Positions 33,296 through 64,000 of a stretch of DNA of 64,000 nt are shown one piece after another. Numbering within the stretch: position 1 is the stretch's first letter; each line of letters begins with the position of its first letter. A model generated the notes under the pieces. It did no database searches, had not been told where the DNA came from, and saw only the letters and a program-made list of their open reading frames with translations. The DNA is from Escherichia phage vB_EcoM_PHB13, in the sequence record MK573636; one strand, written 5' to 3'. Made by a program: the position numbers and the translations under genes.

Positions 33296-33570
33296 TGGAC
33301 AAGAAAACAGCGTTAATGGTTTACATGCTACGCGAAGACCACGGTCTTAATTTTGTTGATATTGCTAAAAAGATTGGCGGGATCAGCGGACAAGATGCGG
33401 CTAAGGCATGGTTGATGGTAAAAGATGCACGCGAGGCTTACGCCAGCCGTGAAAAGGTTGTTTATCGTAAACACCACATCAACAAAAAATTTAAAAATAA
33501 AGTTCAAAAACGTGTTGACAAGCCAAATAACACTGTTATAATGGACGCATTCAAACGGGCAATGTCCTGA
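33295..33570 (+). CDS. hypothetical protein, possible helix-turn-helix
   Basis: ATG overlaps upstream TGA (GTGATGG); ORF track start 33187 rejected because it overlaps the 33098 gene. Confidence 0.4.
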   Translation: MDKKTALMVYMLREDHGLNFVDIAKKIGGISGQDAAKAWLMVKDAREAYASREKVVYRKHHINKKFKNKVQKRVDKPNNTVIMDAFKRAMS

Positions 33571-33616: not shown

Positions 33617-34054
33617 ATGAAATTCCGTAAAAACCACGTAGCAATGAAAAAGGCAATGTTCGAAGCATTCAAAGCAGTTGATCAGGGCGGTGTTACTCTG
33701 ATTGAGCAAATTAATGTTGATGTTTGGCAATCTCCGGCGATCACCTGCTCCCGTCTTGCTACGGCTGGACTTCTGAAAGTTCACAGCTCTACCGCATACG
33801 ACGAAGCATTGCAAGTTATTAAGGCTTTTTCTGGAGACGTTACCAGCAAGTTGGTCTATGAGAATAAAGGTGAAATTGCGGTTGCTCACGTAGGCAACAA
33901 TATCCAGATGGAGATCAAGATTAAGGAAGGGTCTAAACGCAATCAGATGCTTGTTCGCTTCCAACCATACAAAACTAACGTAGTGCCGGATGATCTGATC
34001 ATCTCTAAGAGTAATGTTACCATTCGCCGAAATCAGATCGTTATCAACAAATAA
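33617..34054 (+). CDS. hypothetical protein
   Basis: 145 aa; GAGGTG site; followed by a strong terminator. Confidence 0.5.
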   Translation: MKFRKNHVAMKKAMFEAFKAVDQGGVTLIEQINVDVWQSPAITCSRLATAGLLKVHSSTAYDEALQVIKAFSGDVTSKLVYENKGEIAVAHVGNNIQMEIKIKEGSKRNQMLVRFQPYKTNVVPDDLIISKSNVTIRRNQIVINK

Positions 34055-34062
34055 TTAACATT

Positions 34063-34088
34063 AGCCGTCCTTCTGGGCGGCTTTTTTG
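34063..34088 (+). terminator. rho-independent terminator
   Basis: AGCCGTCCTTCTGGGCGGCT hairpin followed by TTTTTTG. Confidence 0.7.
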
Positions 34089-34111
34089 TATCTGTTATCA
34101 ACATAATTTTA

Positions 34112-34325
34112 GTTTACATGTGCACAATATTAATACTGTTTGATTAAATTGTGACCAAAACGAAGAAAGATCTTTAGAACATAGAAAATGTATCTTTGGT
34201 TAATTATTAATCACTACATATTGTAACACAAATGTTATACTCCGTAGGAGTTCGCGAAGCGATATCCTTTTGTGTAGTTTTTACATATATGATTAAATTA
34301 TGAACAAAACGAAGACTTATCTTAT
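34112..34325. repeat. imperfect direct repeat pair in AT-rich intergenic region
   Basis: GATTAAATTGTGACCAAAACGAAGAAAGATCTT (about 34142) and GATTAAATTATGAACAAAACGAAGACTTATCTT (about 34291), each preceded by TTTACAT. Confidence 0.5.
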
Positions 34326-34467
34326 AGAATAATAAAAATTTGTTTCGAACATTTATTAATCAATTACTGGAAGTGTTTTAATGCTCGCTGTGCTCGCTTC
34401 CGCTACGCGGATACTTGTATTTGTTATTAACTTGTAGTATGATATTGCTTTCTATGGAGGAAATATT

Positions 34468-35055
34468 ATGTTTGACCAGTTACAAGATCTATTTGGAGTA
34501 AAACCACTTCGTAGATGTGCTCTTATAGGCTCTAGAAAAGCGCCTAACGACATTTTGATAATGGCTAGTACCATTGGGAGGGTATTGTCAGAAAATCGCG
34601 TTGTAGCGCATTCTGGAGGGGCTTACGGTATGGACAATGCTTTCATGAAGTATTACGACCCAGATTATAGAAAAATTTTCATTCCAAATTGGAAGTTTTA
34701 CGATCATAAGCATAATGGTCGTGATGTGATTGCGTGGCAGACTCTAGAGCAAAAGAATCTGGCGATGGATGAATTAGAACACGTTTATGATAATCCTCGT
34801 TCTATACCGTTATACATGCAAAATCTGTTTTCTAGAAATGTTGCTCAAGTCTTAGGTGAGACACTTGATGATCCTGTAGATTGTGTGTTATTTTGGGCGA
34901 AAGAAGTTAATGGAATCGTTTCGGGAGGAACTCGAATTGCTGTCTATATTGCTCGTAGACATGGGATACCATGTTTTAACTTATATCATCAAGAAAATAG
35001 ATCCGCCGTCGAAAAAATATTGGGCGGATCTGACTTGTCTTGGTTAGATATTTAG
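34468..35055 (+). CDS. SLOG / DprA-like Rossmann-fold protein
   Basis: ALIGSRKAPND ... VVAHSGGAYGMDNAF resembles the DprA/Smf GxR and SG-x-GxD blocks; occupies the T4 rnlB position next to gene 24. Confidence 0.45.
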   Translation: MFDQLQDLFGVKPLRRCALIGSRKAPNDILIMASTIGRVLSENRVVAHSGGAYGMDNAFMKYYDPDYRKIFIPNWKFYDHKHNGRDVIAWQTLEQKNLAMDELEHVYDNPRSIPLYMQNLFSRNVAQVLGETLDDPVDCVLFWAKEVNGIVSGGTRIAVYIARRHGIPCFNLYHQENRSAVEKILGGSDLSWLDI

Positions 35056-36297
35056 TTAAGCGTTGTCAATCTCAAGCGGTGGCAGTTCGATTCCTAAAAT
35101 GTAGGACATTTCTGAACGTCCAGCCATTTTACCCCAATCGTCACCCTTGATGACCTGGTGTTCTTCCTGATCAACTTTTGATGTGTATGGGTTGACAGAG
35201 AGTGAATAACGATTCATAATAGCTACATGATGCTGGAAGCTATTAGGGTCAATTACGCTCTTATACGCGCCAGCGCCGTCGGCTTCTGTATATGGGGAGT
35301 AGAACAGAGAACCTACACTCTCCATATCACCGATCATGTGCTTACAACCAACGAGCATATAATCGAAAGGTGTTGTCGTGTCTGCGTACACTTCCAGACC
35401 GCAACGTAGACGACCTTCGCTTAGAGCATTGTCGGTTTCTTCCATCCAACCGGTAGATTGCAGGAGGCCAACCACGCGAGAAGACGCCAAAACGTATGTA
35501 CCAGCAAAGGAGGAAGTCCGCAACATTTGATTGCTCATCTCGCAAGCATAGCGGTAAAGTTCACGCGCTTGTGTTGGTGCATCCTGAACGCTAACGAGAG
35601 AAAGTACGCCATCAGGGGTGATCCCTTTAATTTTATAGCGAGATGATACAGTGATCAACTTCTGAATAATATCTTTGTTGATCTCTTCGGAAGCAACAGT
35701 AGCCAGAAGATCAATTACAGAGTTTTCAGAGTTGATTTGGCTTGCCTCAAGATCCTGCATTAATTCAGTGGTGAACGAGGTTTTCAGTTTACGAGAACCT
35801 ACATTAACTTGCCACTTGTCAAACTGCATAGAGGTAGACGCAATTTCGGTGTTTTTATCTTCAAAGTATTCTACCGATGCACAATCGCTATAGAAACGAA
35901 TTTTGTTTGTCATTACGCCTTTAAAGATCGCAGCTTCTGGAGTTGCGGCATCTTCACCGACTGTACCAGCGGTCACAACTTCGTATACAACATCGCCTGA
36001 TTTGAATAGTGCGCCTTCGTCATAAGATTTTTCTTTTGAAAACTCTTCAATCTCTGTGCGATCACCAACCGCTCCACCGTAGGTTGCAGCAGTTCGGAAA
36101 GTCATCTGACCATCATGATTAAGATAACGTAGGCCGTACAATGCAGATACTGGTTGATCCGTTGGTTGGATTGCTACCAGATCAGAGAAAATCAGGTTGT
36201 TTACCGCGCGAGTTAATGATAATAGTTGCGGTCGCGCTGTCTGGTTAGCTACTGAGGAAGTAGATTCCCGCAACAGTTCAGTAAAAATATGAGTCAT
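35056..36297 (-). CDS. 24: capsid vertex protein gp24
   Basis: MTHIFTELLRESTSS ... parallels T4 gp24 N-terminus; ORF track start 36345 trimmed to ATG 36297, which then lies 38 nt below the late promoter. Confidence 0.8.
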   Translation of the reverse strand: MTHIFTELLRESTSSVANQTARPQLLSLTRAVNNLIFSDLVAIQPTDQPVSALYGLRYLNHDGQMTFRTAATYGGAVGDRTEIEEFSKEKSYDEGALFKSGDVVYEVVTAGTVGEDAATPEAAIFKGVMTNKIRFYSDCASVEYFEDKNTEIASTSMQFDKWQVNVGSRKLKTSFTTELMQDLEASQINSENSVIDLLATVASEEINKDIIQKLITVSSRYKIKGITPDGVLSLVSVQDAPTQARELYRYACEMSNQMLRTSSFAGTYVLASSRVVGLLQSTGWMEETDNALSEGRLRCGLEVYADTTTPFDYMLVGCKHMIGDMESVGSLFYSPYTEADGAGAYKSVIDPNSFQHHVAIMNRYSLSVNPYTSKVDQEEHQVIKGDDWGKMAGRSEMSYILGIELPPLEIDNA

Positions 36298-36334
36298 GTT
36301 TATGAATCCTGTATTTGCCTTAATGGATATATCA

Positions 36335-36342
36335 TATTTATA
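36335..36342 (-). promoter_or_regulatory. T4-type late promoter
   Basis: Exact TATAAATA on minus strand upstream of gene 24. Confidence 0.6.
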
Positions 36343-36381
36343 CAAAAAGAAAAAGGAATCCGAAGGATTCCAAAAATAAAC

Positions 36382-63074: not shown

Positions 63075-64000
63075 TGAGCAATTGCCTCCAGACTAATAGT
63101 TGTGTACTGAGGACGGAGATCGTTTTCGAACACGATCAGAGATCCGTCTTTAGTAAAGATGTTATCAGCAATCGGTTTAGCTGTCAACTCAATATATGAA
63201 CCAGTAAAGCGATCGCTATTGATATTCAGTTTACCCAGATCCCATGAAATAAGGTCGTCATAATGCTTAACCTCTCCAACCTCAAAGTATAGGTCCGCAC
63301 CGTCGATAACCTCTTTATCAAAATCAGTGCCGGAATAGTGCGGTAAAGCGATTGTAGAATCAACAGGGAAAGGTCCAACCAGCAATTTAGCTAAACCGGA
63401 TTCTTTGTTCATTTCTGTACTTACATAATGGATCGGATATTGCTTGTCGTCCTTTTCGAAGTTGAATGAACTAGACTTGATTCCGCTCTTATACTGGTTT
63501 AAAAACTTGATTCCAGCCATCGGTGCTTTATAGAAGTTGTCGATCTCTCGCACCATCTCGATTTCTGCACTAGAACCTATCACAGATACATCAGCTTTGT
63601 CAATACGCGCAAGCATTTTAGACTTACTAAAGGTCTGGTTAAAAATTTCCACTTCGTCGTTATAATATGCATCAATCTGATCAATAACCGCACCGCGCAA
63701 CCACTGCTCTGATTCTGACAAGTCATTGATTGAATAGGAAACTTTAATATTCTGTTTAATATACAGATAGTTAGGGTCAATGATGCTCGGTGTGATAGGG
63801 GCAAGGTTATATTTTGCCAGATAATCCCGCATATCTTCTTTTTGAACAGTTGTCAAGCGCAAGCCAGATTTAGGCTTAACAGCAACAAAAGCATAACCCG
63901 GTTTTTCTCGGTCGGTGAAACATTGTACCGCCTGAACAATACTACCAAAACGGCTAGACACAAAAGCCTCATAGTCGGAAGCAGTAACACAACGACGCTG
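63071..64000 (-). CDS. 6: baseplate wedge protein gp6, C-terminal part; 5' end beyond window
   Basis: Open frame continues to window edge; directly upstream of gene 7 as in T4. Confidence 0.6.
   Translation of the reverse strand, partial: QRRCVTASDYEAFVSSRFGSIVQAVQCFTDREKPGYAFVAVKPKSGLRLTTVQKEDMRDYLAKYNLAPITPSIIDPNYLYIKQNIKVSYSINDLSESEQWLRGAVIDQIDAYYNDEVEIFNQTFSKSKMLARIDKADVSVIGSSAEIEMVREIDNFYKAPMAGIKFLNQYKSGIKSSSFNFEKDDKQYPIHYVSTEMNKESGLAKLLVGPFPVDSTIALPHYSGTDFDKEVIDGADLYFEVGEVKHYDDLISWDLGKLNINSDRFTGSYIELTAKPIADNIFTKDGSLIVFENDLRPQYTTISLEAIAQ

Follow-up and report, generated by a model that had tools for sequence, protein, structure and literature searches.

What stands in the place of rnlB, the gene of RNA ligase 2 (Rnl2), in T4-type phages that lack it, and what is the long non-coding stretch in front of it? 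The question is raised by a locus of Escherichia phage vB_EcoM_PHB13 (MK573636), of which 64,000 nucleotides (nt), here called the window, were analysed. The window belongs to an RB49-like T4-type coliphage (97-98% identical) of the genus Krischvirus, and the 1.5 kb around the locus match 58 phage genomes at 95-99%, all of them Krischvirus, including RB49, Phi1, GEC-3S and ECD7. In T4 the genes hoc, 24.3, 24.2 and rnlB are followed by the convergent gene 24, with a gap of 29 bp between rnlB and gene 24. The order in the window is hoc, two small open reading frames (ORFs), 24.3 (DUF2774), a homologue of phi1 ORF165, a long spacer and a homologue of phi1 ORF164, with gene 24 and gene 23 on the opposite strand. 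The ORF164 homologue encodes a protein of 195 amino acids (aa). The initial annotation rightly located T4 rnlB at the equivalent place, next to gene 24; it described the 195-aa protein as a SLOG/DprA-like replacement of rnlB and considered the spacer as a regulatory region, an origin-like element or a recombination scar. Here we show that the protein has the DprA-type fold, that its gene stands beside rnlB in the other T4-like genera where we found it, and that the spacer is conserved and carries a small family of palindromic repeats.

Fold and motifs of the DprA-like protein

The 195-aa protein is a full-length member of PHROG 768, "DprA-like DNA recombination-mediator protein" (E 2.7e-60, residues 15-187). 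This is its own family, from which it differs in nothing. RefSeq gives the same name to the orthologues of GEC-3S, ECD7 and Phi1, and in both databases the name is an annotation by homology. An AlphaFold2 model built with 93 homologues (pLDDT 95.6, pTM 0.91) shows a Rossmann-like fold in three layers and superposes on SLOG proteins of known structure. When this model was compared with the PDB by Foldseek, the top nine matches were all chains of Helicobacter pylori DprA (HpDprA). The superposition on DprA covers about 130 of the 195 residues, and an insertion of about 45 residues (approximately residues 74-118) does not superpose. Among viral predicted structures (BFVD), the protein's own phage family gave TM scores of 0.75-0.80 and the YspA/DUF2493 phage SLOG family only 0.41-0.46; neither the protein nor its family has a Pfam match to the latter (PF10686). 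A profile search of the PDB sequences also led to HpDprA (E 7e-5), with the GSR of the phage protein opposite G-T-R of HpDprA, and a single-sequence phmmer search of the same set gave nothing meaningful. The fold proposed in the initial annotation is therefore the right one: profile and structure searches, which had been suggested as a check, returned a DprA-type SLOG protein and no unrelated fold.

Wang et al. defined two signatures of the DprA domain, G-S/T/A-R and F/L/Y-x-x-R-N/D, and described a pocket of HpDprA (R52, F140, R143 and N144) that holds one base of single-stranded DNA (ssDNA), with G164 also in contact with the base (PMC3950713). The phage protein has the first ssDNA-pocket motif as G21-S22-R23 and a sequence that fits the second, its putative equivalent, as L120-F-S-R123-N124. 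The first of them lies within the GSRKAP block (residues 21-26), which had been recognized beforehand together with the block HSGGAYGMDNA (residues 48-58). Across the 93 family sequences, the key residues of G21-S22-R23, L120-x-x-R123-N124 and G153-G154-T155 are invariant or nearly so. In the glycine-rich ligand loops after strands 1, 2 and 4, the same sequences show no variation at G21, S49-G50, G54 and G153-G154-T155 and very little at G51. The second motif (LFSRN) is collinear by eye with NFPRRN of Escherichia coli Smf.

We conclude that the protein belongs to the SLOG superfamily as a single-domain, DprA-type form specific to phages, and that it is no orthologue of DprA. It differs from the DprA/Smf proteins (PF02481; structures from H. 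pylori, S. pneumoniae and R. palustris) in its single domain and its non-superposing insertion, and in that it comes from a lytic phage with a recombinase loader of its own.

Linkage of the DprA-like gene with rnlB

Relatives of the protein were found by tblastn in 1417 of 50,697 phage records, about 3%, and the hosts of these phages include Klebsiella, Pseudomonas, Escherichia, Vibrio, Aeromonas and Acinetobacter. The gene occupies the same slot in the same orientation as T4 rnlB, convergent with gene 24 and 3' of hoc, 24.3 and 24.2, whereas its product is unrelated to Rnl2 in sequence and in fold. The view that it replaces rnlB did not hold. In T4-like phages outside Krischvirus, the DprA-like gene (protein 35-46% identical) lies just 3' of rnlB on the same strand at all 19 loci. 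T4 has rnlB and no DprA-like gene at this locus, and RB49 has the DprA-like gene without rnlB. The common arrangement is thus the pair of rnlB and the DprA-like gene, of which different lineages have lost one or the other.

Gene 24 follows the pair at nine loci, and the pair is located elsewhere at the other ten. Translational coupling is suggested at 11 of the 19 loci, those with both ORFs called (L004, L006, L015 and L018-L025; L and P numbers are our designations for loci and proteins), where rnlB and the DprA-like gene share 1 or 11 nt or are separated by 9 nt. In the remaining loci one to three small ORFs stand between them. Genomes with the pair away from gene 24 are those of RB43/RB16 size and of the Slopekvirus type, and in Slopekvirus it sits a few genes from a nicotinamide phosphoribosyltransferase gene.

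No rnlB was found at the locus in the Krischvirus-like clade, which comprises the window, L001-L002 and L007-L013, including relatives whose DprA-like protein is only 50-60% identical. The complete RB49 genome contains no Rnl2 homologue anywhere (best tblastn E 0.6).

Some members of the family occur in other architectures. The protein P0065 (299 aa) joins a truncated Rnl2 to the C-terminal half of a DprA-like protein and probably arose when a deletion removed the junction of the two paired genes. In P0090 (318 aa), DUF4326 is fused with a DprA-like domain. In about 33 of 58 metagenomic phage loci of IMG/VR the DprA-like domain is found inside giant ORFs of 1400-2800 or more aa (Table 1), two of which also have an SF1 helicase (AAA_30/PIF1-like) C-terminal to the DprA-like domain; most of the other sequence of the giant ORFs has no Pfam match. 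A survey of polyvalent proteins from 2017 lists no DprA or SLOG domain among its modules (PMC5512222).

The spacer and its palindromic modules

The spacer upstream of the DprA-like gene (34055-34467) is AT-rich as first described, with a G+C content of 27-32% against 40-46% in the flanks, and is 413 bp long rather than about 380 bp. It contains no ORF of more than 28 aa; the small ORFs present were rejected as genes, being at most 28 aa long and in sequence that is unconserved in the relatives. A tRNA or another known structured RNA was likewise rejected, as an Rfam search of 33900-34600 with E values up to 10 gave terminator-driven noise and no family.

The spacer is constrained. Among seven close genomes, 18 of its 413 sites are variable. 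For third codon positions of ORF165, the DprA-like gene and gene 24, the corresponding count is 104 of 772, so that variation is about three times lower in the spacer (odds ratio 0.29, Fisher p = 2e-7). Comparison across related phages, another check proposed at the outset, showed the same at greater distance. In the metagenomic relatives L007 (protein 58% identical) and L009 (50%), the spacer measures 326-404 bp and presents a similar series of elements: both retain a terminator, two modules with hairpin tails, a proximal -10-like box and a Shine-Dalgarno sequence, and in L007 the -35 box is also clear. L010 (59% identical), a shorter contig with 351 bp upstream of the gene, has one full and one cut-off module and the putative proximal promoter P3. 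The spacer is therefore a conserved region and not an unconserved junction, and its conservation, its retained layout and its module family make a regulatory role, one of those first considered, probable.

Two modules, A and B, form the core of the spacer (Table 1). A direct repeat had been reported near 34142 and 34291 with 27 of 33 positions identical. The repeat is present, and its exact extent is 34141-34174 and 34290-34323, with 29 of 34 positions identical and a spacing of 149. A 26-mer degenerate consensus of the repeat matches only these two places in the window, where shuffled sequences lead one to expect 0. A profile search lengthens each copy to about 75 bp, of which the repeat forms the left part. 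The resulting modules are imperfect palindromes with outer arms TGATTAA/TTAATCA and inner arms ACCAAA/TTTGGT (A) or AACAAA/TTTGTT (B), and each palindrome surrounds an AT-rich centre with a -10-like box. Homologues of the modules were found in L007, L009 and L010. In L007 and L009 the palindromes fold far better than shuffles (z -4.7 and -5.5, respectively), and their arms differ in sequence and stay complementary (TCAAACGTCAT/ATGACGTTTGA in L007, TACGTTTTCTCTATA/TATAGAAAAAACGTA in L009). The L009 copies carry clearer promoter boxes than those of the window (TTGAAC-17-TATAAT and ATGATC-17-TATAAT).

The elements around the modules are kept in a similar manner. A terminator is annotated in GEC-3S and TB34 at the place of the first element, and L007 has an equivalent hairpin of other sequence. 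The GCTCGCT-rich island noticed near the end of the spacer corresponds to the tail of module B, a hexamer repeat followed by a hairpin. In L007, L010 and L013 this tail reads GCTCRC-N3-GYTCGC with a differing hairpin, and in L009 it is an inverted repeat, GCAAGC-TTT-GCTTGC, with a hairpin. GC hairpins at equivalent places differ in sequence from lineage to lineage and always have stems of 5-7 bp and loops of 3-4 nt (arms CTCC/GGAG, GTGCC/GGCAC, ATGCC/GGCAT, AATCC/GGATT, TCCGC/GCGGA, CCCGC/GCGGG, GCAGC/GCTGC, TCGGC/GCCGA and ACCGC/GCGGT); as they were chosen by eye at homologous places, this is suggestive and not formal covariation. The place and the 17-nt spacing of P3 are kept as TTGATT/TATAGT in L007, TTGTGT/TATAAT in L010 and TTGTTT/TATGAT in L013.

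The module profile finds four copies in RB49 (OZ035808.1), two of them in this spacer and two before tail genes, all four oriented toward their downstream gene. The two extra copies have the same tail as module A, made up of a triloop hairpin and, behind it, TCGC(G/A)AAGCGA, and in RB49 the sequence TCGCGAAGCGA, with at most one mismatch, occurs only behind three of the module copies. A late-type box, TATAAATA, lies between the element on the tail-fibre side (63270-63367) and its gene. The module was not found in the examined loci of other T4-like genera. A degenerate 16-base module pattern gave at least 120 matches in unrelated IMG/VR contigs, evidently by chance, and was discarded.

Three further observations concern the same region. 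The sequence TGATCA (GATC, a Dam/BclI site) is changed in both modules only in this phage among the seven Krischvirus genomes compared, to TGACCA in module A and to TGAACA in module B (positions 34151, 34155 and 34304), and the same base of the -35-like hexamer is altered in both copies. In L013 (protein 86% identical), about 190 bp of additional sequence (L013:2270-2461) separate the proximal promoter from the DprA-like gene; the upstream module of L013 differs in sequence, with the GCGAAGC and GCTCGC-N3-GCTCGC tails kept. T4-type early promoters at two GTTT(T)TACA boxes 5' of each module were rejected, as there is no -10 box at a workable distance.

The closest described elements are the PeSLs, intergenic AT-rich cassettes in which a sigma-70-like early promoter and a stem-loop precede a Shine-Dalgarno sequence and an ATG (PMC2839356; also PMC4122927). 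Arbiol et al. reported about 50 PeSLs per genome in RB49 and phi1, with promoter and terminator activity shown for some; the stem-loop precedes the -35 and -10 boxes, stands between them or overlaps with them, and the cassettes are tied to modular shuffling, with the hoc region among the named places associated with them (PMC2839356). The spacer shares with them the RB49-like host genomes, the intergenic position, the AT-richness, the combination of promoter-like sites with stem-loops, the repetition in the genome and the location beside variable accessory genes. P3 stands directly 3' of the GC hairpin at 34399-34411, which is a PeSL-type arrangement, and the unit of this hairpin, P3 and the Shine-Dalgarno sequence fits the description well. 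Modules A and B fit more loosely: they are long AT-rich palindromes with moderate promoter matches, whereas PeSLs have consensus promoters and polyG/polyC stems, and they stand in tandem with no gene between them and with a conserved triloop hairpin and GCGAAGC tail.

Table 1 Features of the locus, copies of the module in RB49 and loci of related genes. Positions refer to the window unless another genome or locus is named.
Feature	Position	Strand	Basis
Upstream gene, phi1 ORF165 homologue, 145 aa	33617..34054	+	ORF list; PHROG 15652 E 9e-100; annotated ORF165 in phi1
Predicted intrinsic terminator, AGCCGTCC-TTCT-GGGCGGCT then TTTTTTG	34063..34087	+	Terminator scan: 8 pairs, 6 G-C
Module A, imperfect palindrome of about 75 bp	34140..34214	+	Repeat finder; nhmmer E 1.4e-10; fold z -2.55
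Module A promoter-like site	GTGACC 34151-34156, 18 nt, TAGAAC 34175-34180	+	Weak sigma-70-like
Module A tail: hairpin ACTCC-GTA-GGAGT, mini-hairpin TCGC-GAA-GCGA (with GCGAAGC), T-rich run	34239..34262	+	Sequence reading
Module B, second palindrome copy	34290..34362	+	Repeat finder; nhmmer E 2.9e-8; fold z only -1.33
Module B promoter-like site	TGAACA 34301-34306, 18 nt, TAGAAT 34325-34330	+	Promoter scan 9/12
Module B tail: direct hexamer repeat GCTCGC-TGT-GCTCGC	34383-34397	+	
Module B tail: hairpin TCCGC-TAC-GCGGA (TCCGCTACGCGGA)	34399-34411	+	Hairpin/terminator scan
Putative proximal promoter P3 of the DprA-like gene, TTGTAT-17 nt-TATGAT	34415..34443	+	Sequence reading; 8/12, below scan threshold
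Shine-Dalgarno sequence GGAGG, 7 nt before ATG 34468	34456..34460	+	Sequence reading; conserved in the alignment of relatives
DprA-like gene, 195 aa, single SLOG domain; phi1 ORF164; GEC-3S YP_009118850.1	34468..35055	+	ORF list, family searches, fold model
Gene 24 (capsid vertex protein) ORF	35056..36345	-	Pfam Gp23 family E 7.5e-88; annotated in GEC-3S, phi1
RB49 third module copy, before tail-fibre gene (phrog_16472)	RB49 module 63270-63342, with tail to 63367	+	Locus set L070/L071
RB49 fourth module copy, before tail-tube-family gene (phrog_45), divergent intergenic region	RB49 module 140515-140453, with tail to 140418	-	Locus set L070/L071
rnlB + DprA-like gene pair	Serratia X20, PS2; Morganella MP1; Klebsiella Slopekvirus; IMG/VR L014-L028, L057		
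DprA-like domain in giant ORFs	IMG/VR L032-L049, L055-L065; examples L045:8-8491, L037:47-7606, L033:53-6475		

Proposed function

The reading that we favour, and that we hold to be about evenly poised between right and wrong, joins a DprA-type protein acting early on single-stranded nucleic acid with a spacer that is a stack of regulatory cassettes of the PeSL kind. The gene would be expressed early in infection, under a sigma-70-type promoter of its own. Its product would hold single-stranded nucleic acid in a pocket formed by G21-S22-R23, S49-G-G-A-x-G-x-D56, L120-x-x-R123-N124 and G153-G-T155, possibly in the mode of the HpDprA domain, that is, one base with its phosphate, and its role in recombination or repair might be an accessory one, to protect single-stranded DNA or RNA or to pass it on. 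The DprA-like gene and rnlB would share a transcript in most of the other T4-like genera, often with translational coupling, which suggests that broken or nicked nucleic acids are a common substrate of the two proteins; the RB49-like phages lost the ligase and kept the DprA-like protein, so the latter can presumably also act alone. We propose a role on single-stranded or broken nucleic acid because of the DprA-type pocket, the linkage to RNA ligase, the fusion to a helicase, and the finding that ShosA, a DprA-like defence antitoxin, binds ssDNA and thereby supports DNA repair (PMC11961720). The spacer would consist of the terminator of the upstream unit, two anciently duplicated promoter-like palindromic modules of about 75 bp with GC-rich hairpins, and a final set of hairpin, promoter and ribosome-binding site.

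Several observations weigh against this reading. The Pfam DprA model (PF02481) remains below threshold, with 22.5 bits against a cut-off of 29.6 and over residues 15-60 only, and the NCBI dprA equivalog model TIGR00732 gives 14.5 bits against a cut-off of 191; as it misses the DprA cut-offs of both Pfam and TIGRFAM, the protein is placed in a phage-specific DprA-like clade and not among the orthologues. Sequence similarity to bona fide DprA is limited to residues 15-60. An hhalign comparison of the family with E. coli Smf covers the first 66 columns only, at a probability of 12%, and Smith-Waterman local alignment of the C-terminal half was no better than with shuffles. Since no sequence alignment reaches the C-terminal half and hence the second motif, the equivalence of that motif rests on inspection and on the structural superposition. 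The isoelectric point of the protein is 6.6, compared with a family median of 8.7, and the SAM and winged-helix domains of cellular DprA are missing. T4-like phages already have UvsY as a recombination mediator. The link with the ligase is not obligatory, because RB49 has the DprA-like gene without Rnl2. As for the spacer, the promoter-like hexamers of the window are weak (the -10 box of module A is TAGAAC, and P3 scores 8/12), promoter-like sites are not enriched in the 2.5 kb region (8, against 7.6 in shuffles), and two of the RB49 module copies precede late structural genes, an unusual place for an early promoter.

Alternative explanations

A possible but unlikely alternative is that the protein is a counter-defence factor, which would act on a small nucleotide as a sponge or hydrolase, for instance of a cyclic ADP-ribose isomer, or would mimic the antitoxin of a Shosta or PsyrTA system. 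Nucleotide binding is a general property of the SLOG fold, 3'cADPR is the ligand of the SLOG domain in the Thoeris effector ThsA, and the conserved residues of the phage family are all in the canonical ligand loops. ThsA-type and LOG-type SLOG domains nevertheless score below DprA, and the family keeps the first DprA-specific ssDNA-contacting motif and the putative equivalent of the second. PADLOC gave two DprA-like antitoxins and nothing else, PsyrA (E 3e-5) and ShosA (E 3e-4), but these matches span only the shared N-terminal 45 residues; ShosA has an additional SAM domain and a phosphoribosyltransferase toxin as partner, and no toxin partner accompanies the phage protein. The gene is seemingly early and accessory, and its 1417 records come from many unrelated lineages. 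The giant proteins of 1400-2800 aa resemble injected "polyvalent" conflict proteins (PMC5512222), although those that can be annotated have SF1 DNA helicase modules, which point to work on DNA and not to the degradation of a signal. The DUF4326 of one fusion is linked to NAD/ADP-ribose systems (PMC7824862). We found no sponge or hydrolase from the DprA-like family reported in the literature.

A second alternative concerns the spacer and appears doubtful to us: the modules would not be promoters, or not only promoters, and would give rise to short structured early RNAs, about 60-90 nt long and with their ends at the GC hairpins, which would have a regulatory function or prime replication at an origin. 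At oriE and oriF of T4, DNA synthesis starts from a transcript made where AT-rich DNA unwinds. No other part of the neighbourhood is as AT-rich as the spacer, which is under purifying selection, and T4 oriF, which depends on a particular promoter type, is only about 6.7 kb from gene 24; RB49 is reported to lack that promoter type. Module A precedes no gene, only hairpins and a T-run and then module B. The transcript predicted for 34186-34282 folds better than shuffles (z -2.7), whereas that of module B is not unusually structured (z +0.43). The two RB49 copies before late tail genes have the same hairpin pair in between, and one also the TATAAATA box, so that no more than a short RNA would come from an early promoter at these places. 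On the other hand, the RNA has no Rfam family, the -10 box of module A is poor, the spacer shows neither iterons nor a marked change of GC skew, and PeSL-type cassettes are known to join promoter and terminator without a role as origin (PMC2839356).

An extension that joins the two components differently strikes us as improbable. The rnlB/DprA-like pair would be an undescribed two-protein module of repair or counter-defence, in which the DprA-like protein recognizes single-stranded or broken RNA or DNA ends for Rnl2, or neutralizes for it a defence of the Shosta/PsyrTA or nucleotide-signalling type. The four-copy element would at the same time make short early RNAs and mark origins in these MotA-less phages, and its "palindrome + triloop hairpin + GCGAAGC" RNAs could be replication primers or regulators. 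To our knowledge, neither the in vivo role nor the natural substrate of RNA ligase 2 is established.

Two further explanations are very improbable. A LOG-like enzyme, which would alter the nucleotide pool in favour of phage DNA synthesis as a nucleotide 5'-monophosphate N-glycosidase (phosphoribohydrolase), should carry the LOG enzyme mark PGGxGTxxE (PMC3950713), which is absent, the equivalent loop V-S-G-G-T-R-I-A-V having neither P nor the catalytic glutamate; the protein has no Pfam match to PF03641 (LOG/lysine-decarboxylase-like phosphoribohydrolase), only 9 of the 93 family members touch LOG-related Pfam models, and weakly, and the neighbour in T4-like phages is an RNA ligase and not a gene of nucleotide metabolism. 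The recombination scar of the initial annotation, if taken as a neutral junction left by deletion of rnlB with repeats arisen by chance, could appeal to the absence of rnlB exactly here, compared with T4 and other genera, and to the PeSL-mediated deletions documented in these phages (PMC2839356), but it is largely refuted by the low variability of the spacer relative to neighbouring third codon positions, by the retention of its whole layout in relatives whose flanking proteins are 50-60% identical, by the membership of the repeat in a four-copy RB49 family and by the lack of any trace of Rnl2 coding sequence.

Neighbouring genes

A promoter that matches the sigma-70 consensus perfectly (TTGACA and TATAAT 16 nt apart, TG preceding the -10 box) is located at 33515-33542 (+), within the 3' end of the 24.3/DUF2774 gene and 75 nt 5' of the ORF165 homologue. 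Flanked by this promoter and by the terminator at 34063-34087, ORF165 looks like a separate early unit.

The ORF of gene 24 as called mechanically begins at TTG and gives 429 aa. The gene is annotated with 1242 nt (413 aa) in relatives, and translation therefore probably begins at an ATG located 48 nt within the ORF (MTHIFTELL...; window 36298-36345, minus strand). The convergent stop codons of the DprA-like gene (TAG, plus strand) and gene 24 (TAA, minus strand) abut at 35053-35058, with neither a base nor a terminator between the two genes. Transcripts from the plus-strand promoters would thus run antisense into the late gene 24.

Discussion

Both components of the locus are of kinds already catalogued, the protein as a member of a phage DprA-like family and the spacer, by its fit, as probable cassettes of the PeSL type; it is no new kind of system, and the finding mainly confirms existing annotation. 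The DprA-like family is very common, also inside giant multi-domain proteins, yet our literature search found no experimental study of any phage member, the combination of "DprA-like" and bacteriophage giving annotation mentions only, and no paper that joins RNA ligase 2 with DprA. For RNA ligase 2, the strict linkage of rnlB and the DprA-like gene across several T4-like genera provides a concrete candidate partner. As the spacer shows, "non-coding junk" that separates gene blocks of T4-type phages can be strongly constrained, and the small, well-defined repeat family of the spacer is directly testable as promoter, terminator, small RNA or origin. The conserved rnlB/DprA-like pair and this strongly constrained repeat family are the most useful new leads that the locus offers.

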